NCBI GenBank assembly: GCA_035263405.1 | Contig: DATFRI010000074.1 | Coordinates: 9,824 to 73,823, forward strand | Length of the DNA: 64,000 nucleotides | Direction: 5' to 3' | From: Actinomycetes bacterium | GTDB taxonomy: Bacteria > Actinomycetota > CALGFH01 | Part shown: positions 36,600 to 45,609 of the stretch, piece after piece | Layout of the letters: every line of letters starts with the position of its first letter | Numbering within the stretch: the stretch's first letter is position 1 | The notes under the pieces: model-generated | Database searches by the model: none | What the model was told of the DNA's origin: nothing | The model's input: only the letters and a program-made list of their open reading frames with translations | Position numbers and translations under genes: made by a program

Positions 36600-38200
36600 G
36601 GGGTGTCGGTGTCCATCGCGTTCTGTCCGCATCTGTCAGTCGGGGAGCACTGCGGCCGGGTGCGCTGTCGGGAGCATCCGCCATGCTCTGGGGATGACCA
36701 TCGCCGCACCCACCGACGTCCCTGCCGCGCCCGCGCGCGAGCCGGCGCCGCTGGGCTGCGTGCAGGCCTACCGGTTCGCGCTGGACCCCACCCCGAGGCA
36801 GCAGCGGGCGCTGGCGTCCTCGGCTGGCGGCGCCAGGTTCTGTTTCAACTGGGGCCTGGAGCACGTCAAGCAGCTGCTGGACCGGCGTGCCGCTGGCGAG
36901 CCGGTCGAGGTCCCCTGGAGCCTGTACGCGCTGCGGCGGGCGTGGAATCAGGCCAAGGACGAGGTCGCGCCGTGGTGGCCGGAGAACAGCAAGGAGGCGT
37001 ACAACAGCGGCTTGGACGGCCTTGCCCGGGCGCTCAAGAACTTCTCCGACGGCCGCTCGGGCAAGCGCAAGGGCCCGCGGGTGGGGTTCCCGCGGTTCCG
37101 CAAGCGGGGCCGCACCAAAGCGGCGGTCCGGTTCACCACCGGGACGATCCGCGTGGAGGCCGACCGCAAGCATGTGACCCTGCCGCGGTTGGGCGCGCTC
37201 AGGACCCACGAGTCCACCCGCAAGCTCGCCCGGCGGCTGGAGGCTGGCAGCGCCCGCATCCTCAGCGCCACGGTCAGCCGCACGGGTGGCCGCTGGTTCG
37301 TCTCCTTCACCTGCCAGGTGACCCGCACGGTGCCCGCCCGGGCGGCACGGCCGCCGCGGGTGGTCGCCGCGGACGCCGGGGTCACGCAGCTGCTGACCCT
37401 GTCCACCGGCGAGCGTATTCCCAACCCCGCCGCGCTCCGCCACGCGCTGGTCAGGCTACGGCGGCTGAACCGGCAGCTCGCCCGGCGCAAGGGCCCACGC
37501 ACCCCTGCGGGCGGCTACCGCGAGCCATCCGCCAACTGGTTGGACGCCAAGGCCGAGCTGGCCCGGGCGCACGCGCGGGTGGCCAACCTGCGCCGTGACG
37601 CGTTGCACCAGGCGACCAGTCGGCTCGCGCGGGAGTATGACCTGGTCGTCGTCGAGGCCTTGCGAGTGGCCAATCTGCTGCGCAGGGCTCGCGGCAAGCG
37701 GGGGCTCAACCGGGCGCTCGCCGACGCGGCGCTGGCGGAGCTGCGCCGGCTGCTTGGCTACAAGTGCCCGTGGGCGGGGTCGGTGCTGCTGGAAGCCGAC
37801 CCGTTCTTTCCCTCCAGCAAGAGCTGCTCTGGTTGCGGGGTGGTCAAAGCCACGCTGCCCTTGACCGAGCGGGTGTTTCGCTGTGATGCGTGCGGTCTGG
37901 TCGTCGACCGGGACGTGAACGCCGCGTTGAACCTCGCCGCCCTCGCGAGCAGCCGCCTCGTCACCGTCATCGGTGACGCGGGGCAGAGGGCCGGCGCCGG
38001 GAGTGGCCCGGGACCGTCAACCGCCCGTGGAGGCCAGGTAAGACCCCGCGTCCGCGCGGGGCACCGGTCGGCGAAGCGGGAAGCCGGCACCGGCCTGAGC
38101 CTTCAGGCTGGGTGAGACCGGCACCGCCGGGTCGCAAGGCCCAGGCTGCCCGGACCGCGACGATCACAGATCGTCGTTGAAGTTCCGAGTAACGGTCGCG
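36600..38200 (+). mobile_element. tnpB-only IS200/IS605-family (IS1341-like) element. Boundaries are approximate. A 7-bp inverted repeat CGACGAT-N5-ATCGTCG sits at about 38155-38180 in the presumptive right end / omegaRNA region.
   Basis: TnpB gene is flanked by short non-coding stretches and inserted between convergent host genes (holin-like gene and S8 peptidase gene). I did not see terminal inverted repeats of the DDE type, which is consistent with IS605-family elements. Confidence 0.6.
36694..38115 (+). CDS. tnpB: IS200/IS605-family TnpB (OrfB_IS605 RuvC-like nuclease with C-terminal Zn-ribbon)
   Basis: 473 aa with an N-terminal HTH/OrfB region, RuvC-like motifs and the Zn-ribbon CSGCG...CDACG. 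No tnpA is adjacent. Confidence 0.9.
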   Translation: MTIAAPTDVPAAPAREPAPLGCVQAYRFALDPTPRQQRALASSAGGARFCFNWGLEHVKQLLDRRAAGEPVEVPWSLYALRRAWNQAKDEVAPWWPENSKEAYNSGLDGLARALKNFSDGRSGKRKGPRVGFPRFRKRGRTKAAVRFTTGTIRVEADRKHVTLPRLGALRTHESTRKLARRLEAGSARILSATVSRTGGRWFVSFTCQVTRTVPARAARPPRVVAADAGVTQLLTLSTGERIPNPAALRHALVRLRRLNRQLARRKGPRTPAGGYREPSANWLDAKAELARAHARVANLRRDALHQATSRLAREYDLVVVEALRVANLLRRARGKRGLNRALADAALAELRRLLGYKCPWAGSVLLEADPFFPSSKSCSGCGVVKATLPLTERVFRCDACGLVVDRDVNAALNLAALASSRLVTVIGDAGQRAGAGSGPGPSTARGGQVRPRVRAGHRSAKREAGTGLSLQAG

Positions 38201-38202
38201 GG

Positions 38203-39465
38203 TCAGCCGTACGACGCGGGGTTGACCACCGCACCCAGGCCGCAGCCGCGCTCCTGCAGGCGCGGCGCGGCGGGCGCGCCGACCAGGCGGAAGGCGGCCT
38301 CGGGCGCGTCCATGCCCGTGCCGGCCAGGGCCGCGATCGCCCCGGCCACCCGTGGCGCCGCGAACGACGTGCCGCTCCAGGAGGCCCACAGCCGGAACTG
38401 CTGGGTCCCGGACGCGGGCTGCCCCAGGCAGTGCGGGCCCGGTCCCGGCTCGGGGTCGAAGTCGGCGTCGAAGAACGTGCTGTGCACGTCCACGCCCGGC
38501 GCCCAGGCGTCCACCCAGGTCCCGAAGTTGCTGAAGCACGCGCGCCGGCCGTCCGGGCCGAGCGCCCCCACGCCGAGCACGCGCTTGAACGCCGCCGGGT
38601 AGGTGCGCCGGTCCAGGCCGTCGTTGCCGGCCGCGGCGACCACGACCAGGTGGGGGTTGCGCCGGAAGCACTCGGTGAGCGCGGCGGCGGTCAGCGGCGG
38701 CTCCTGGTCCCCGTGGGTGTAGGCGCCGAGCGACAGGTTGGCGACCTGGACCTCGGGCGGCAGCTCGGCGAGCGCGCCGGCCAGCGCGGCGTCGTCGCAC
38801 ACGCCGTCGCCGCCGAACACCTTGCGGGCGACCACCTCGGCCCCGGGCGCGTGCTGGAGGATCACGCCGGCGACGAAGGTGCCGTGGCCGGCGTAGTGGG
38901 CCAGCTGGTTGTTGGCGCGCAGGACCGGCGCCTCGGTGTCGGCCTGGGGGTTGGGGCGCAGCGTCCGGGCGCGGGGGCCGAGCCAGGGATGGCCCTCCAT
39001 GAGGCCGCTGTCGAACACCGCCACCCGCACGCCGGCGCCGGGCTGCTCGCTCATCTGGCTGGACAGCGCCCCGAGCGGGCCGGCGCCACGGGGGGACGTG
39101 GCCGGGAACGGCAGGGGGTGGGTGCCGCCGAACAGCACGTGGTTGGGGTGGACGCCGACCGGCCGCTCGCCGAGCTCCAGGTCGAACTCGCGCCCGCGGA
39201 TGAGCTGCACGATCTCGGGCACGGTCGGCTCCTCGGCGTCCAGCAGCAGCCGCACGAAGCCGCCGGCCTCGAGCCGCTCCTCGGCCCACTGCGCCAGGCC
39301 GAGGCGGCGCAGCTCGCCGCGCACGCGCTCCAGGTCGCGCGGGCCGGTGAGGAGCTGGCGCGGCCGGTACAGGTAGCCGCCGCCGAGGTGGTGCGGCGCC
39401 TGCTCGACGTCGGCCGGCAACGACACCTCGTGCGGCTCGCCGTGGCCCTGCGGCTCGTTCTCCAT
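38203..39465 (-). CDS. S8-family subtilisin-like serine peptidase with no signal peptide
   Basis: Catalytic triad contexts VAVFDSG (Asp), HGTFVAG (His) and GTSFAAP (Ser). SD GAGGAGG before the ATG at 39465. The N-terminal 140 aa are hydrophilic and lack a secretion signal. Confidence 0.85.
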   Translation of the reverse strand: MENEPQGHGEPHEVSLPADVEQAPHHLGGGYLYRPRQLLTGPRDLERVRGELRRLGLAQWAEERLEAGGFVRLLLDAEEPTVPEIVQLIRGREFDLELGERPVGVHPNHVLFGGTHPLPFPATSPRGAGPLGALSSQMSEQPGAGVRVAVFDSGLMEGHPWLGPRARTLRPNPQADTEAPVLRANNQLAHYAGHGTFVAGVILQHAPGAEVVARKVFGGDGVCDDAALAGALAELPPEVQVANLSLGAYTHGDQEPPLTAAALTECFRRNPHLVVVAAAGNDGLDRRTYPAAFKRVLGVGALGPDGRRACFSNFGTWVDAWAPGVDVHSTFFDADFDPEPGPGPHCLGQPASGTQQFRLWASWSGTSFAAPRVAGAIAALAGTGMDAPEAAFRLVGAPAAPRLQERGCGLGAVVNPASYG

Positions 39466-39628
39466 CCCGGCCTCCTCGCTTTCACGGTGGGCTGCGCCCG
39501 AATTTGTCTCCTTCGTACAATCTCGGACCCGAGCAGTCCAGATCGCGTCGTCCGGGTGGGATGATCTCCTGAGCCGCGCCGAGCCGTCCCGACGCCTGCC
39601 AGCTCCCGTTCCCGTGGGGAGGACCGCC
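39466..39628. promoter_or_regulatory. Divergent promoter region between the S8 peptidase and CHAT genes. It contains an unusually AT-rich segment (CCCGAATTTGTCTCCTTCGTACAATCTCGG).
   Basis: Local GC drop in otherwise >70% GC DNA, at the position expected for shared divergent promoters. Confidence 0.3.
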
Positions 39629-42307
39629 GTGCCCGGATCCGCCGCCAGCATCGCCGCGCGGGCGATGGAGCTGTCCGGGGTCGACCCGGGACGGGCGCGC
39701 GTGACCGCCGCGGAGGCGCTGCGCGAGGCGCGGGCCGAGCACGACGCCGCCGCCGCCTGCATGGCCGAGCGGGCGTTGGGGCTGGCGGCCAGGCAGGCCT
39801 TCGAGATCGACAGCGCGCTCGGGCACCTGCGCCGCGCGGTCAGGATCGCCGAGCGCGGCGGCCTCGTCCTGCAGGCGGCGCAGGCCAGGGTGCAGCTGTC
39901 GGGCATCCTCGCCGTCCGGGGCGAGTTCCCCGCCGCCCTGCGGGAGGCCGACCGGGCCAGCCCCACCCTGCGCGGCGGCGACCTGGCCCTGCTCCAGGCG
40001 CAGCGCGCGTTCATCCTGCAGATGCAGGGCCGCCTGGCCGACGCGCTCGAGGGCTACCGGCTCGTCCTGCCCGCCTTCCGCCGCTCGGGGGACACGTTCC
40101 ACGAGGCCAAGGCGCTGCACAACCGGGGGCTGCTGCACTACCACCTCGGCGCCCTCGGGGCCGCCGAGGTGGACCTGGCCCGCGCCGCGGAGCTGTGGAC
40201 CGGCCTCGGCAACCAGCGGGAGACCGCCGACGCGGACCAGAACCTCGGCTGCGTCCTGGTCCGCCAGGGCCGGCTGCCCGACGCCCTGGCCCGGTTCGAC
40301 CGCGCCGACGCGTACTTCGCCGCCAAGGGCATCCTCGACCCCGTGGGCCTGCGCGACCGCTGCGAGGCGCTGCTCGCCGCGCGCCTGGTCGCCGAGGCCC
40401 GCCGGACCGCCGAGCAGGCCGTCGCCGGGCTGGCCGCGCGGGGGCTGGCGCCGTTCCTCGCCGAGGCGCAGCTGCTGCTGTCGGAGGCGGCGCTGCTGGA
40501 CGGCGACGTGGCCGCCGCACGCGACGCGGCCACGGCCGCCCGCAAGGGGTTCGCCGGCCAGCGCCGGGCGCGCTTCCTCGCGCTGGCCCGCTCAGCCCTG
40601 CTGCGGGTGGCCTGGGCGAGCGGGGAGCGCTCGCCGCGGCTGCTCGCCGACGCCCGCCGGACCGCGCGGGCGCTGGCCGTGGCGGGCTGGACGGTGCCCG
40701 CGCTGGACGCGCGGCTGGTCGCCGCCCAGCTCGCGCTGGACCTGGGGCGCGTCAGGACCGCCCGCGCCGAGCTGGCCCAGGCGACCGCGGCGCGCCAGCG
40801 CGGCCCGGTGGAGCTGCGCTCCCGCGCGTGGCACGCGGAGGCGCTGCTGCGGCTGGCGGGCGGCAACCGCGCCGGCGCCGAGTCGGCCCTGCGCGCCGGT
40901 GTCCGCATGCTCGGCCGCTACCGCGCCGCCCTGGGCGCCACCGAGCTGCGCGCCAGCTCCTCGATGCACGCGGCCGGCCTGGCGCGCCTGGGGCTGCGGC
41001 TGGCGCTCGCCGACGGCGACGCGCGCCGGGTGCTGCGCTGGGCGGAGCGCTGGCGCGCCAGCAGCCTGCAGCCGCACCCGGTGCGCCCGCCCGGGGACCG
41101 GGAGCTGGCCGGCGACCTGGCGCAGCTGCGCCGGGTCGCCGGCGAGCTGGGCGAGGCGGTCCAGGCCGGCCGCGACACCGCGCGGCTGCGCGCCCGGCAG
41201 GCGGCGTTGGAGGAGGCCGTGCGCCGCCGCGCGCGCCAGGCACCCGCCGCCGGCCTCTACCAGCCCGGCGTCGAGCCCGCCCTCGGGTCCCTGCGGGCGG
41301 CGCTCGGCGAGCGCGCGCTGGTGGAGCTGGTCGAGCTGGACGGCCAGCTCCACGCCGTGGTCGTCACGGCCGGGCGCACCCGGCTGCGCCCCCTCGGCCC
41401 CGTCGGCCAGGTCGCCGGCGAGCTGGACGGGCTGCGCTTCGCGCTGCGGCGCATCGCGCACGGCCACGGCGGCCCGTCCTCGCTCGACGCCGCGGCGCAG
41501 GCGCTCGCGGCCGCCGCCCGCGGCCTGGACGACCTGCTGCTCGACCCGCTTCGGCCGGACCTCGGCGACCGGCCGCTGGTGGTGGTCCCCACCGGCGCGC
41601 TGCACGCGCTCCCCTGGCCCGCGCTGCCGAGCTGCGCCGGCCGCCCGGTCGCCGTGGCGCCCTCCGCCGCGCTGTGGTGCGCGGCGACCTCCCGCCCCCA
41701 CCCGCCCGAGCCCGTTCCCGGGGCCCCCGCCGGGACGCGGCCCGCGGCCGCGCCGGACCGCACCGTCCTGGTCGCCGGGCCGGGCCTGCCCGAGGCCGCC
41801 GCCGAGGTCGCCGACCTGCACGACCGCTACCCCGGCGCCCGCCGCCTGACCGGCGAGGCCGCCACCGTCCACGCGGTCGCCGGCGCGCTCGACGGCGTCG
41901 CCCTCGCCCACGTCGCCGCGCACGGCCGCTTCCGCACCGACAACCCGCTGTTCTCGGCGCTGGAGCTGGCGGACGGGCCGCTCACCGTGTACGACCTGGA
42001 GGCCCTGCGCGCGGCGCCGCTGCGGCTGGTCCTGGCCGCCTGCGACGCGGGGCTGTCGGAGGTCCGCCCGGGCGACGAGCTGATGGGGCTGGCCGCCGCC
42101 CTGTTCACGCTGGGCATGCGCACGATGATCGCCTCGGTCCTGCCGGTCCCGGACACCGCCACCCGTCCGCTGATGCTCGCGCTGCACGACCGGCTGCGCG
42201 CCGGGCTGGAGCCCGCCGACGCGCTCGCGGGCGTCCAGGCCGGCGCGGCGGCCAGCGCCAGCTCGTGGGCCGCGTCGGTGAGCTTCGTCTGCTTCGGAGC
42301 CGGCTGA
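39629..42307 (+). CDS. TPR-like repeat / CHAT (caspase-like) domain protein
   Basis: The N-terminal ~550 aa are Ala/Leu/Arg-rich helical repeats. The C-terminal CHAT domain carries the His-Cys dyad contexts HVAAHGRF and LVLAACDAG. SD GGGGAGGA before the GTG at 39629 (ORF track start 39614). Confidence 0.8.
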   Translation: MPGSAASIAARAMELSGVDPGRARVTAAEALREARAEHDAAAACMAERALGLAARQAFEIDSALGHLRRAVRIAERGGLVLQAAQARVQLSGILAVRGEFPAALREADRASPTLRGGDLALLQAQRAFILQMQGRLADALEGYRLVLPAFRRSGDTFHEAKALHNRGLLHYHLGALGAAEVDLARAAELWTGLGNQRETADADQNLGCVLVRQGRLPDALARFDRADAYFAAKGILDPVGLRDRCEALLAARLVAEARRTAEQAVAGLAARGLAPFLAEAQLLLSEAALLDGDVAAARDAATAARKGFAGQRRARFLALARSALLRVAWASGERSPRLLADARRTARALAVAGWTVPALDARLVAAQLALDLGRVRTARAELAQATAARQRGPVELRSRAWHAEALLRLAGGNRAGAESALRAGVRMLGRYRAALGATELRASSSMHAAGLARLGLRLALADGDARRVLRWAERWRASSLQPHPVRPPGDRELAGDLAQLRRVAGELGEAVQAGRDTARLRARQAALEEAVRRRARQAPAAGLYQPGVEPALGSLRAALGERALVELVELDGQLHAVVVTAGRTRLRPLGPVGQVAGELDGLRFALRRIAHGHGGPSSLDAAAQALAAAARGLDDLLLDPLRPDLGDRPLVVVPTGALHALPWPALPSCAGRPVAVAPSAALWCAATSRPHPPEPVPGAPAGTRPAAAPDRTVLVAGPGLPEAAAEVADLHDRYPGARRLTGEAATVHAVAGALDGVALAHVAAHGRFRTDNPLFSALELADGPLTVYDLEALRAAPLRLVLAACDAGLSEVRPGDELMGLAAALFTLGMRTMIASVLPVPDTATRPLMLALHDRLRAGLEPADALAGVQAGAAASASSWAASVSFVCFGAG

Positions 42308-42541
42308 CGCGCGCGGCCGGGCGTCCGCAGGCCGCGGTATCAGCGGGGGCCCGCGCCTGCTCCCGCAGACGAGGTCGAGCGGCGGCGGAGGGCATCGATG
42401 CGGACGGGAGCGTGCGCGCCGGCGTGGCGGAGGCCACGCCCGCCGGCCCCGGCCACGCCTCGCATGGGGGGTGCCATCGCGCCGGGCCGCTGTGCTACGT
42501 TCTCGCAGTTCGAGCGTACTGGCACGACCGAGAGGAACCGG

Positions 42542-43108
42542 TTGGTGGATCGGGACGTCGCCGTCCTGCTCGGCGACGCCGCCAACGGCGACCACCGCGC
42601 CTGGGAGTCGCTGGTGGACCGCCTCAGTCCCCTGCTCTGGTCCGTCGCGCGGGGCTACCGGCTCAGCCAGCCCGACGCCGAGGACGTCATCCACACCGCC
42701 TGGATGCGCCTGCTGGAGCGGCTCGACCGGATCGAGGACCCCGCCCGCGTGGGCTCCTGGCTGGCGACCACCGTCCGCCACGAGTGCCTGCGCCTCCTGC
42801 GGCGGCAGGGGCGGATCGTGCTGACCGGCGAGGCGGAGCTGGACAGCGGCGCCAGCGACCAGCCGACCCCCGAGGCCGCGCTGCTGCGGGCCGAGCGCAG
42901 CACCCTGCTCGCGCACGCGTTCGCCCAGCTCCCGCAACGCTGCCAGCAGCTGCTGCGCATGCTGGCCGTGCGCGCGTCCTACGAGGAGGTCGCGGGCGCC
43001 CTCGACATGCCGGTCGGCGCGATCGGCCCGACCAGGGGCCGCTGCCTGCAGCGGCTCCGCCAGCGGCTGGCGGCCGGCGGGATCAGCGTCAGCAGGCTGG
43101 CCGACTGA
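42542..43108 (+). CDS. ECF (sigma-70 family) RNA polymerase sigma factor
   Basis: Sigma-70 region 2 (LWSVARGYRLSQPDAEDVIHTAWMRL) and region 4 (ASYEEVAGALDMPVGAIGPTRGRCLQRLR). The start is a TTG/GTG at 42542/42545 after GAGAGGAA. The upstream part of the ORF track entry is unlikely to be coding. Confidence 0.85.
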   Translation: MVDRDVAVLLGDAANGDHRAWESLVDRLSPLLWSVARGYRLSQPDAEDVIHTAWMRLLERLDRIEDPARVGSWLATTVRHECLRLLRRQGRIVLTGEAELDSGASDQPTPEAALLRAERSTLLAHAFAQLPQRCQQLLRMLAVRASYEEVAGALDMPVGAIGPTRGRCLQRLRQRLAAGGISVSRLAD

Positions 43109-43135
43109 GGCCGCCCGGGCAGGGAAGGAGGCAGG

Positions 43136-43597
43136 ATGCGCGACTCACCCGAGGACGAGCGGCTCCTCGACGAGCTGCGCCGGGTGCTCGACCGCACCGA
43201 CCCGATGCCCGAGCAGGTCACCCGCGCCGCCAGGGAGAGCTACACCTGGCGCACGGTCGACGCCGAGCTGGCCGCGCTGGCCTGGGACTCCGACGCCGAC
43301 CGGCCGCTGGCGTCGGTGCGCGGCACCGGGGACGCGCGGCTGCTCACCTTCGACGCCGAGGGCCTGCGGTTCGACCTGGAGATCAGCGGCAGCGGCCGCG
43401 ACCGGCGCCTGGTCGGCCAGCTCGTCCCGGCGCAGCCCGGCGAGGTGGAGCTGCGGCAGCGGTCGGGCCTGGCGCGCACGGTCCAGGCCGACGACGCCGG
43501 CCGGTTCGCCATCGCCGACCTCGAGCCCGGCCCGCTCAGCCTGTGCTGCCGGCGTCCCGGGGCGGCGGTGGTCGCCACGGAGTGGTTCCTGCCCTGA
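43136..43597 (+). CDS. Hypothetical 153-aa protein in the ECF sigma operon. A possible soluble anti-sigma or regulatory partner.
   Basis: The SD GGAAGGAGG precedes the ATG. It begins 27 nt after the sigma-factor stop. The C-terminal half is beta-rich. There is no TM segment and no zinc-finger anti-sigma motif. Confidence 0.55.
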   Translation: MRDSPEDERLLDELRRVLDRTDPMPEQVTRAARESYTWRTVDAELAALAWDSDADRPLASVRGTGDARLLTFDAEGLRFDLEISGSGRDRRLVGQLVPAQPGEVELRQRSGLARTVQADDAGRFAIADLEPGPLSLCCRRPGAAVVATEWFLP

Positions 43598-43611
43598 CCG
43601 AGGAGGCGGGT

Positions 43612-44286
43612 ATGCCCAGGACAGGCTTCACCCCGCAGCAGCACGGCTTCCACTTCGACAACGACTTCGTCAACAAGGTGGCCACGCTGCCGGGCTTCGG
43701 CCAGATCGAGACCCGCGGCCGCTGCGGCGGGATGGCCTACGCCGCGCTCGACTTCTACCACGCGGGCGTCCCGGTCCCCGCGGACACCACCCTGCCGCCC
43801 GACGGCAGCCCGCTCTCCGACTTCATCTCCCGGCGGCTGCTGGACAGCTTCCTGGTGCCGAGCGCCATCCAGTTCGTCTCCTGGACGCTCCACTCCGACC
43901 ACAGCACCTGGTTCTTCAAGGGCGTCACCCGCTGGACCCGGGAGGACCAGCTCCCCCGCCTGCGTGGCTTCCTCGACCGCGGCCAGCCGGTCCCGCTCGG
44001 CCTCGTCGGCGCCCGCGACCTGCGCGACGTCGGCGACGGCAACCACCAGGTCGTCGCCTACGGCTACGACCTGGACCAGGGCACCCGGACCACCCGCGTC
44101 CAGATCTACGACAACAACACCCACGACCAGGAGGTCGTGCTCACCGCCGACCCGTCCAGCCCCCACATCCACGCGTCCAACCGGCGCACGCCCTGGCGCG
44201 GGCTGTTCGTCCAGAGCTACACCCGGGTCGCCCCGCCGCCCGCGCTGCTCGGCGCCGGCGCGCCCGCGCGACCGCCCGACCGGTGA
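43612..44286 (+). CDS. Papain-like cysteine peptidase-fold protein (C39-like / Peptidase_C39_2-like Cys...His arrangement)
   Basis: SD GAGGAGG before the ATG, 14 nt after the previous stop. Candidate catalytic Cys in GRCGGMAYAALDFYHAG and His in GNHQVVAYGYD...VQIYDNN, which resembles the C39 'CG..a..m' and 'HfvVl.gyd...v.i.DP' blocks. Confidence 0.5.
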   Translation: MPRTGFTPQQHGFHFDNDFVNKVATLPGFGQIETRGRCGGMAYAALDFYHAGVPVPADTTLPPDGSPLSDFISRRLLDSFLVPSAIQFVSWTLHSDHSTWFFKGVTRWTREDQLPRLRGFLDRGQPVPLGLVGARDLRDVGDGNHQVVAYGYDLDQGTRTTRVQIYDNNTHDQEVVLTADPSSPHIHASNRRTPWRGLFVQSYTRVAPPPALLGAGAPARPPDR

Positions 44287-44313: not shown

Positions 44314-44508
44314 TCAGGAGGAGCCGAGCGAGCGCGGCGGGTAGAGGGACCTCGCCCAGCCGCGGATCGCGTCGGCCGGCGAGCCGAGGCTGAACAGCGC
44401 GGTCAGGGCGAGGAAGCAGCCCAGCAGCAGCATCCCCATCCTCGCGCCGGCCAGGCCCCAGGCGAACGCCACGAGCCCGCCGTACACCGTCACCGCGACC
44501 AGTCGCAT
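44314..44508 (-). CDS. Small hypothetical membrane protein (64 aa, 2 TM)
   Basis: ATG ORF with two hydrophobic segments. No homology recognised. Confidence 0.3.
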   Translation of the reverse strand: MRLVAVTVYGGLVAFAWGLAGARMGMLLLGCFLALTALFSLGSPADAIRGWARSLYPPRSLGSS

Positions 44509-44628: not shown

Positions 44629-45609
44629 TCAGTCGTCCACGTGCACGCGGCCGAGGCTCGACTCGGCCGGCGGGAACTGCGGCTGCATGGCCTCCAGGGC
44701 GCCGGCGATGGCCCGCGCCACCACCAGGTTGCGGTAGCGGCGGCTGTTGCTCGGCACCACGTACCAGGGCGCGTGCGGGGTGGAGCAGCGCATGATCGCG
44801 TCCTGGTAGGCGACCTGGTAGTCGTCCCAGCGCTTGCGCTCGGCGAGGTCGGCCCTGCTGAACTTCCAGTTCTTGTCGGGGTTGTCCAGGCGCCGCTCGA
44901 GCCGGCGCTTCTGCTCGTCCTTGGAGATGTGCAGGAAGAACTTGAGCACGGTCACGCCGGCCTGGGTGAGCGCCAGCTCGAACTGGTTGATGGCGTCGTA
45001 GCGGGCGGCCCAGACCTCCTCGGGCACCAGCTGCCGCACCCGGACGACGAGCACGTCCTCGTAGTGGGAGCGGTTGAAGATGGTGATCATGCCCTTGGTC
45101 GGCACCTTGGCGTGGTAGCGCCACAGGAAGTCGTGCGCCAGCTCCTCCACGCTCGGCTGCTTGAAGGACCACACCTGGCAGCCCTGCGGGTTGACCCCCT
45201 GGAAGACGTGCTTGATGGTGCCGTCCTTGCCGCCGGTGTCCATCGCCTGGAGCACGATGAGCAGGCTGCGGCGCTGCTCGGCGTACAGCCGTGCCTGGAG
45301 GGCCGCGATCCGTCCGCGGTGGCGGGCCAGCTCCTCGGCGATCGCCTTCTTCTTGAGCCCGTCGGGCCTGCCGGGTTCGATGTCGACGAGCCGGAACGGC
45401 TCGTCGGGCGCCGTATGCGCGTGCGCGGTGGGAGCCACCTTGGCCTTCGGCCGCGCCCTGGAGCGGGTGCCCCTGGTGCCGGCGGCCGCCCGTGCCGCCG
45501 GCGCGCGGCTCCTGGGGGCGGTGGTGCGCCTCGTCCGCCCGGCCGGGGCGGCGCCGCGGGCGGGGTCGCCGTCGTCGGTACCTGACCGGCCGCTGGAACC
45601 GGTGGCCAT
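44629..45609 (-). CDS. ppk2: Polyphosphate kinase 2 (PPK2) family protein
   Basis: Walker A-like LLIVLQAMDTGGKDGTI and lid/C-terminal WYVVPSNSRRYRN. SD GAGGAGGAAG before the ATG at 45609. The Arg/Ala-rich N-terminal 70 aa are low complexity. Confidence 0.9.
   Translation of the reverse strand: MATGSSGRSGTDDGDPARGAAPAGRTRRTTAPRSRAPAARAAAGTRGTRSRARPKAKVAPTAHAHTAPDEPFRLVDIEPGRPDGLKKKAIAEELARHRGRIAALQARLYAEQRRSLLIVLQAMDTGGKDGTIKHVFQGVNPQGCQVWSFKQPSVEELAHDFLWRYHAKVPTKGMITIFNRSHYEDVLVVRVRQLVPEEVWAARYDAINQFELALTQAGVTVLKFFLHISKDEQKRRLERRLDNPDKNWKFSRADLAERKRWDDYQVAYQDAIMRCSTPHAPWYVVPSNSRRYRNLVVARAIAGALEAMQPQFPPAESSLGRVHVDD

Follow-up and report, generated by a model that had tools for sequence, protein, structure and literature searches.

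The subject of this analysis is a cluster of genes around a sigma factor in 64,000 nucleotides (nt) of DNA from an Actinomycetes bacterium (assembly GCA_035263405.1, contig DATFRI010000074.1), a stretch referred to here, at its full length, as the window. Three co-directional genes at positions 42542 to 44286 encode a sigma factor of the extracytoplasmic function (ECF) class, a soluble protein of 153 amino acids (aa), and a predicted papain-like protein of 224 aa, and two protease genes lie just upstream. The evidence set out below points to a four-gene module in which the 153-aa protein may restrain the sigma factor until a CHAT-domain protease cleaves it, with the 224-aa gene apparently a passenger. 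The three genes are as follows.

42542 to 43108, + strand: ECF sigma factor gene, 188 aa from a TTG start at 42542, with TIGR02937 and Sigma70_r2 matches.
43136 to 43597, + strand: 153-aa soluble partner and candidate anti-sigma factor, from ATG 43136, with an AlphaFold2 (AF2) model, CarboxypepD_reg-like.
43612 to 44286, + strand: divergent papain-like (C39_2-like) cysteine peptidase homolog, 224 aa, from ATG 43612, with an AF2 model.

The first-pass annotation, made from the letters alone, had described a tightly spaced trio with strong Shine-Dalgarno (SD) sites, and the layout is as it described: the 153-aa gene begins 27 nt past the sigma stop codon with GGAAGGAGG ahead of its ATG, the 224-aa gene begins 14 nt past the 153-aa stop with GAGGAGG ahead of its own, and no intrinsic terminator was found on the + strand between the three. 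Given the 14-nt gap and the lack of a terminator, the 224-aa gene is probably co-transcribed with the other two in this organism. The start of the sigma gene is ambiguous, because the TTG at 42542 has an SD site (GAGAGGAA) directly 5' of it whereas the source annotation (P0214) begins at an ATG at 42464 and yields a protein of 214 aa. All three are real genes rather than chance open reading frames of a window whose GC content is 76%, since homologs are numerous for each (E values down to 1e-115, 1e-61, and 1e-91, respectively) and GC at third codon positions (GC3) is about 98% in every one. The third open reading frame had been correctly delimited and only its length needs amending, from 225 to 224 aa; the motifs quoted from its product are all present, GRCGGMAYAALDFY at residues 36-49, GNHQVVAYGYD at 143-153, and IYDNN at 165-169.

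The two upstream genes encode proteases of different classes; the first-pass annotation had named them only as genes whose promoters the sigma factor might recognize.

38203 to 39465, - strand: S8 subtilase, 420 aa, Pfam Peptidase_S8 at 3.2e-28, SD site GAGGAGG.
39614 to 42307, + strand: TPR-CHAT (caspase-like) cysteine protease, 897 aa, CHAT at 6.1e-35 (residues 634-881) and TPR_12 at 2e-09.

The TPR-CHAT gene stands directly 5' of the sigma gene on the same strand, and the S8 gene diverges from it across an intergenic region of 148 nt. The TPR-CHAT protein is predicted to be cytoplasmic, and the subtilase has neither a signal peptide nor a transmembrane segment. Both are predicted to be active enzymes, since the catalytic His-Cys dyad of the former (His770-Gly771 and Cys810; 41 homologs) and the Asp-His-Ser triad of the latter (D152, H194, and S367, together with N281; 33 homologs adjoining 153-aa genes) are conserved at 95% or more.

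Whether these neighbors belong together was addressed through 80 metagenomic loci carrying a homolog of the 153-aa protein, collected in a metagenome scan with a reduced alignment. An ECF sigma gene lies directly upstream, on the same strand, in 57 of the 61 loci that retain enough upstream DNA, and a TPR-CHAT homolog (28/34) and an S8 homolog (26/34) accompany the pair in most of the loci flanked by 6 kb or more. The two protease genes mostly form a divergent pair, with CHAT often immediately 3' of the 153-aa gene, and the order and orientation of the pair relative to sigma and the 153-aa gene vary among loci. The 224-aa gene occurs in none of the 80. Given that CHAT, S8, and sigma travel with the 153-aa gene and the 224-aa gene does not, the conserved unit appears to comprise four genes (S8, TPR-CHAT, sigma, and the CarboxypepD_reg-like 153-aa gene) rather than the three that had been read as a set. 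As a separate observation, in L090 (953-4708), and similarly in L093, L097, and L101, a paralogous ECF sigma gene stands 5' of a sigma/153-aa/S8/CHAT module. The paralog is 52-54% identical to the window sigma and in L090 closer to it than the module's own sigma; judged from translations, it is preceded by a PP2C-type phosphatase-like gene and followed by a large cyclase/ATPase-like gene. A second 153-aa-like gene was not found after the paralogous sigma in any of these four loci.

The sigma factor itself presents little difficulty. Its match to TIGR02937 (sigma70-ECF) over residues 20-176 reaches 1.5e-25 and 89.8 bits (cutoff 42.9), Pfam Sigma70_r2 follows at 6.5e-16, and the sigma-4 match is weak (0.008-0.012); by these profiles it is an ECF (group IV) sigma-70 factor, just as first proposed. 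Its closest homolog, 80% identical, lies in locus L161. Of the named ECF groups the one with the corresponding surroundings is ECF54, reportedly introduced by Huang et al. in 2015. No transmembrane segment and no HxxxCxxC motif was found in the proteins neighboring the sigma gene. ECF54 is described as an actinobacterial group lacking a recognized anti-sigma factor, whose genomic context comprises carboxypeptidase(-regulatory), subtilase, and CHAT proteins; regulation through proteolysis has been put forward for it and never tested (PMC8999054, section 3.3). Casas-Pastor et al. 2021 give a matching description and also name a 4Fe-4S protein as a neighbor (PMC7826278). The window carries this signature in full, with a CarboxypepD_reg-like protein, a subtilase, and a CHAT protein around an actinobacterial sigma without a zinc-binding or membrane-spanning anti-sigma factor, and the same context recurs across the surveyed loci. 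The origin also agrees: an identical 153-aa protein (P0121) comes from an 'Actinomycetes bacterium' metagenome-assembled genome, and the named relatives of the sigma and 153-aa proteins are from Actinomycetota. The listing of the 120 best homologs of the sigma factor contains no protein of Geodermatophilus, the genus of a listed ECF54 member (SFT86700.1, Geodermatophilus amargosae). The module thus appears to be of ECF54 type as judged by its context signature, not by ECF Hub models.

The 153-aa protein is the pivotal member of the unit. It occupies the position where an anti-sigma gene is usually found, and the first-pass annotation was right that it has neither a transmembrane segment nor a zinc-finger motif: no hydrophobic stretch is present (maximum Kyte-Doolittle score over 19 residues, 0.85), there is no HxxxCxxC, and its only cysteines are residues 137 and 138. 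The AF2 model, built on an alignment of 93 sequences (mean predicted local distance difference test score, pLDDT, 82), comprises two helices (5-20 and 26-53), a linker, and a beta-sandwich (68-139). The sandwich is modeled with high confidence (pLDDT 90-97) and residues 50-63 fall below 50, as expected of a predicted disordered linker. Foldseek matches the sandwich, and the sandwich only, to FN3/Ig-like domains, and the sequence matches Pfam CarboxypepD_reg weakly (6.8e-4), as do 42 of its 93 relatives. The highest conservation lies outside the sandwich, in the linker and helix 2 (W38 R39 xx D42 A43 E44 L45 A46 x L48 xx D51 S52), with D51 and S52 conserved at 90% or more; R62 is invariant in all 93 sequences. 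One further feature can be marked on the DNA.

43283 to 43324, + strand: candidate protease-accessible linker, codons 50-63 of the 153-aa gene, pLDDT below 50, ending near the invariant Arg62.

From the model, this segment with R62 is a candidate cleavage site.

Class I anti-sigma factors (ASD/ZAS) possess a four-helix domain that frequently carries an HxxxCxxC zinc motif and is usually followed by a transmembrane helix. The 153-aa protein was rejected as a member of this class, as it has two helices, no HxxxCxxC, no transmembrane segment, and no Pfam anti-sigma match among the 93 family members. Class II anti-sigma factors of the CnrY/NepR type bind sigma-2/sigma-4 through a short segment of about two helices and are encoded beside their sigma factor. 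With this type the helices within residues 5-53 and the gene position agree, and there is no match in sequence or fold. The family is large (2,840 clusters at 50% identity with E values of 1e-10 or better) and nearly uniform in length, at 150-170 aa. Pseudonocardia and Cellulomonas sp. NS3 are culturable carriers, and NS3 has homologs of the 153-aa as well as the 224-aa protein. One member, P0432, is an in-frame fusion of the two proteins, residues 6-152 matching sigma (2e-21) and residues 156-300 the 153-aa protein (4e-32); it is a single cluster representative and could be an assembly artefact. Another, P0334, carries two tandem N-terminal helix motifs (…LLDxLR…DPVP…FTWRTIDAELAEL) ahead of the beta-sandwich, a duplication that suggests that the helical part of the family is an independent module.

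The near-obligate order of sigma and 153-aa genes, the conservation pattern, the intact active sites of the proteases, and the P0432 fusion are the grounds for proposing a soluble anti-sigma model. In the first step the 153-aa protein would hold the sigma factor through its two N-terminal helices in the manner of CnrY/NepR. A cytoplasmic signal received through the TPR region would then activate the CHAT cysteine protease, with S8 perhaps providing a second step in a cascade; the protease would cut within the disordered linker of the 153-aa protein or close to it, and the freed sigma factor would transcribe its targets. That CHAT cleavage of a 153-aa anti-sigma factor frees the sigma factor of this ECF54-type module is given a probability of roughly 55%, the cleavage step being proposed by analogy with the craspase system discussed below.

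The same features can be arranged differently. In one alternative there is no anti-sigma factor at all: the sigma factor would itself be the substrate of CHAT, S8, or both, being stabilized, processed, or degraded, as is proposed in the ECF54 literature, and the 153-aa protein would be an adaptor, a protease inhibitor, or simply a co-regulated product. The 153-aa sandwich loosely resembles protease-associated regulatory domains (CarboxypepD_reg), an intracellular proteinase inhibitor of B. subtilis is among its weak fold matches (rank 29, E 0.09), and a protein without similarity to known anti-sigma domains is what this alternative would expect. The arrangement found in 57 of 61 loci is nevertheless the classic sigma/anti-sigma layout, it is the helical N-terminus rather than the sandwich that is most conserved, and a fusion of the two proteins exists; sigma as the substrate is accordingly considered unlikely.

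A second alternative is the one originally advanced, in which the sigma factor is released when the product of the third gene, the 224-aa papain-like peptidase, cuts the 153-aa protein. The broader idea, that a cysteine protease controls the sigma factor through the 153-aa protein, is plausible and is retained here. The choice of the 224-aa protein as that protease is not supported: its gene is missing in every one of the 80 loci that carry a 153-aa homolog, and in L161 another gene takes its place. In favor of the original choice are the likely co-transcription, a confident papain-like model with Cys, His, and Asp all in place, and two occurrences elsewhere. In L163 (1-6049) a module resembling ECF54, made up of sigma, a 177-aa member of the 153-aa family, TPR-CHAT, and S8, has a 77% identical homolog of the 224-aa protein about 1 kb away. 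In L168 (5736-8029), from a lower-GC organism, a more distant 342-aa homolog with a C-terminal extension comes straight after a sigma-70-family gene. Against it stands the behavior of the gene across genomes, as an essential regulator should travel with the sigma/153-aa pair. Among 80 genomic loci of the 224-aa family (1.08 Mb, including Cellulomonas, Bacillaceae, Chloroflexota, Clostridia, and Nitrososphaerales), none has a homolog of the window sigma, the 153-aa protein, or CHAT within 8 kb; a general ECF profile found two sigma genes within that distance, both more than 2.8 kb away. The family is thus widespread without sigma/153-aa neighbors. Unbiased clustering of these neighborhoods, noisy from spurious high-GC open reading frames, yielded no conserved neighbor, only lineage-specific synteny. 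The nearest relatives (72-78% identical) follow upp in housekeeping contexts without any sigma gene.

The comparison with L161, the closest relative of the window locus (sigma 80%, 153-aa 71%, and CHAT 79% identical), is the most direct. There the order is CHAT, sigma, 153-aa, and then a GSDH/PKD gene in place of the 224-aa gene, and nucleotide homology with the window (81-82%) ends at 43600, exactly at the 153-aa stop codon, to resume at 44645 in the PPK2 gene. Because homology breaks at that stop codon and another gene fills the gap, the 224-aa gene sits in a variable slot. It therefore appears to be a lineage-specific passenger in that 3' slot rather than a regulator and, given its probable co-transcription here, at most a sigma-dependent output; that it is the protease releasing the sigma factor is very improbable. 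Recent horizontal transfer of the gene was rejected on composition, its GC3 of 98% being that of its neighbors.

Several details touch this slot and its counterparts. The L163 homolog, like that on the 161-kb Joint Genome Institute contig of P0003, lies between an HTH_3/Peptidase_M78 (ImmA/IrrE-like) pair and a cell-wall hydrolase with CHAP and PG_binding_1 domains. The sigma factor of L168 is divergent and unrelated to that of the window (Sigma70_r2 1.1e-5), and a gene for a 136-aa membrane protein also precedes the peptidase there; in L169 a member of the same distant subclade likewise follows an unrelated sigma gene, and P0016 has a similar 202-aa upstream gene. L168 and L169 may represent an independent case of a sigma-linked peptidase. 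In the window, a 64-aa hydrophobic open reading frame (44314-44508, - strand) without a family match converges on the 224-aa gene within the segment missing from L161, and the polyphosphate kinase gene PPK2 (44629-45501, - strand, 1.4e-74) marks where L161 synteny resumes. In L161 (7605-10604) a further CHAT-domain protein, larger at 1,210 aa, is encoded about 5 kb downstream, past the PPK2 and Septum_form genes.

As to what the 224-aa protein is, the AF2 model is confident (pLDDT 94.1, predicted template-modeling score 0.90) and makes a divergent papain-like fold well supported. Cys38 opens a helix (38-50), His145 starts a strand (144-155), and Asp167 follows another (160-166), which in the model is the Cys-His-Asp architecture of papain-like (clan CA) peptidases, with Cys heading a long helix and His and Asp on consecutive beta-strands. 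None of the three is substituted in 35 diverse relatives, and each is conserved at 90% or more across 120. Foldseek against the PDB finds IdeS/Mac-1 as the best match (E 0.074, probability 0.84, template-modeling score 0.27), and the top 50 matches are mostly papain-like peptidases, including IdeS/Mac-1, cathepsins, a type VI secretion system effector, UfSP, and phytochelatin synthase. All of these matches are weak, with E values of at least 0.07 (none at or below 0.001) and scores of 0.27-0.35. The sequence itself matches nothing in Pfam (0 families at E values up to 1), NCBIfam, or PDB sequence and profile searches, and Foldseek found no meaningful match among viral structures (BFVD); Peptidase_C39_2 (PF13529) is matched weakly by 11 of 120 relatives (best E 5e-05). 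Likeness to clan CA and PF13529 lies in architecture, as against the lack of a Pfam match of its own and structural scores that do not exceed 0.35. The suggestion of a papain-like fold made at first reading accordingly holds for the fold and the catalytic residues and fails for the C39 affiliation. Membership in C39 or C39_2 was rejected, there being no family match and no ABC exporter beside the gene in the window; true C39 peptidases differ further in their ABC-transporter/leader-peptide context, which appears neither in the window nor as a conserved neighbor in the 80 loci.

The 224-aa family extends well beyond this organism (P0002-P0120, L001-L080), to Actinomycetota, Bacillaceae, Chloroflexota, Clostridia, Bacteroidia, Gammaproteobacteria, and Nitrososphaerales archaea. 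Members are often longer (320-390 aa) and bear B_lectin (7/120), PG_binding_1, or MIR domains at the N-terminus or extensions without assignment at the C-terminus, and no signal peptide was seen in the aligned N-termini of the family. From these domain fusions, the substrates of the family may lie in the cell envelope.

With both halves of the locus described, a number of findings weigh against the proposal that CHAT cleaves a 153-aa anti-sigma factor. Six of the 34 well-flanked loci have no CHAT homolog within the flank examined. No known anti-sigma domain is detectably similar to the 153-aa protein, for which sequence and profile searches of the PDB gave nothing significant, and the ECF literature lists ECF54, the group to which the module was assigned by context, without an anti-sigma factor (PMC8999054). 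A cognate promoter, which the first-pass annotation had proposed to look for, did not emerge: k-mer pairs and expectation-maximization found no -35/-10 motif shared by 50 sigma upstream regions, a crude search that covered the regions upstream of sigma genes only, with those of CHAT and S8 outside it, and that recovered only SD/start-codon regions and lineage-specific similarity. A scan for the sigma-70 consensus found nothing. Finally, in L163 and L168 homologs of the 224-aa protein are encoded close to ECF sigma genes, which keeps alive some loose link between this peptidase and sigma factors, possibly as a sigma-regulated target.

In a third alternative the sigma factor would act on CHAT and S8 as its targets and would not be regulated by them. 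These two proteases, and here the 224-aa protein, would then be outputs of the sigma regulon, for example effectors of proteolytic stress, cell death, or defense. Casas-Pastor et al. caution that conserved neighbors of ECF genes may be targets and not regulators (PMC7826278). The variable order and orientation of the CHAT/S8 pair are consistent with this, as is the clustering of three peptidase genes around a sigma factor of an often autoregulated type, and the lectin and peptidoglycan-binding fusions among relatives of the 224-aa protein suggest envelope-directed effectors. The absence of a shared ECF-type promoter motif upstream of the sigma genes, crude as the search was, speaks against this alternative too, and TPR-CHAT proteins are the signal-activated upstream component in the sigma-linked systems that have been characterized. 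PADLOC finds no known defense system in the window, only generic subtilase matches and a marginal match to BovA. That the proteases are outputs and nothing more is thus held to be improbable, and control of the sigma factor through cleavage of the 153-aa protein remains the preferred explanation.

Adjoining the 3' end of the S8 gene, outside the unit, is an IS605-family OrfB/TnpB gene (36694-38150, + strand) with matches to OrfB_IS605 (2.4e-20) and a Cas12f1-like TNB domain (1.3e-19); an Rfam Transposase-2 RNA match (58.7 bits, 38073-38150) overlaps its 3' end.

The implications for sigma factor biology depend on the 153-aa protein. Few ECF groups are still listed with no known regulator, ECF54 among them, and the present analysis names candidates that had been missing: the 150-170-aa neighbor as anti-sigma factor, TPR-CHAT with or without S8 as activator, and the linker at residues 50-63 with R62 as the cleavage site. 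If the proposal is true, the 153-aa family would constitute a new class of anti-sigma factor. The 224-aa protein, for its part, represents a broadly distributed, unannotated, and effectively uncharacterized papain-like family.

Seen against known systems, the locus is first of all an addition to ECF54, a group that is known from bioinformatics and experimentally unexplored, and whose gene set has already been described. It departs from the published account in two respects: the small CarboxypepD_reg-like protein is read here as the missing anti-sigma factor, which the literature does not do, and the 224-aa papain-like gene is outside the described context. The first-pass annotation had considered peptidase-mediated release unusual for ECF regulation. 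That description no longer fits, as proteolysis had been proposed for ECF54 and CHAT or Lon proteases are known to cut soluble anti-sigma-like proteins in systems associated with clustered regularly interspaced short palindromic repeats (CRISPR).

The nearest of these systems is craspase, in which the TPR-CHAT protease Csx29 cleaves Csx30, a protein that binds and inhibits the ECF-like CASP-sigma (PMC10028731). The window likewise encodes a TPR-CHAT protease with an intact His-Cys dyad (H770, C810) together with an ECF sigma factor and a soluble protein. It differs in having no Cas7-11, no significant match to the NCBIfam model of Csx29 (E 0.075, 11.9 bits, cutoff 300), and no CRISPR-like repeat array in its 64 kb; the 153-aa protein resembles Csx30 in neither size nor sequence, and S8 is an additional conserved member. 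The locus is thus not a member of the type III-E craspase systems and resembles them in logic only.

In Myxococcus xanthus, control of the ECF sigma factor DdvS by DdvA also involves a TPR-CHAT domain with a His-Cys dyad. DdvA is a transmembrane anti-sigma factor whose TPR-CHAT domain is periplasmic, and is described as the only characterized one with such a domain (PMC11506125). DdvA is a membrane-spanning, zinc-binding protein, whereas here CHAT is a separate and apparently cytoplasmic protein and the partner has neither a transmembrane segment nor a zinc motif.

Two further systems are summarized in a preprint (bioRxiv 10.1101/2023.06.23.546230): CalpL, which cleaves CalpT and releases CalpS, and a type III-B CRISPR cascade from SAVED-CHAT to PCaspase. 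In these a signal-activated protease cuts a soluble anti-sigma-like protein, or initiates a cascade of two proteases, beside a sigma gene, and by this analogy the CHAT and S8 pair could form a two-protease cascade of its own. The window has no SAVED or other domain for sensing cyclic oligoadenylate and no genes of CRISPR or of antiphage signaling systems based on cyclic oligonucleotides, and where the systems in that text employ Lon or caspase proteases, the pairing here is of TPR-CHAT with a subtilase. If the cleavage proposal is true, the protease/anti-sigma/sigma logic of craspase and CalpL would also be a common stand-alone signaling device in Actinomycetota. A bolder reading, put forward tentatively and with some doubt, is that ECF54 modules are common equivalents of the output branch of craspase that work independently of CRISPR, in which CHAT, with or without S8, would sense an intracellular cue such as infection by phage or proteotoxic stress, cleave a new class of anti-sigma factor at its disordered linker, and free the sigma factor to express variable cargo genes, of which the 224-aa gene here would be one, at the 3' end of the operon.

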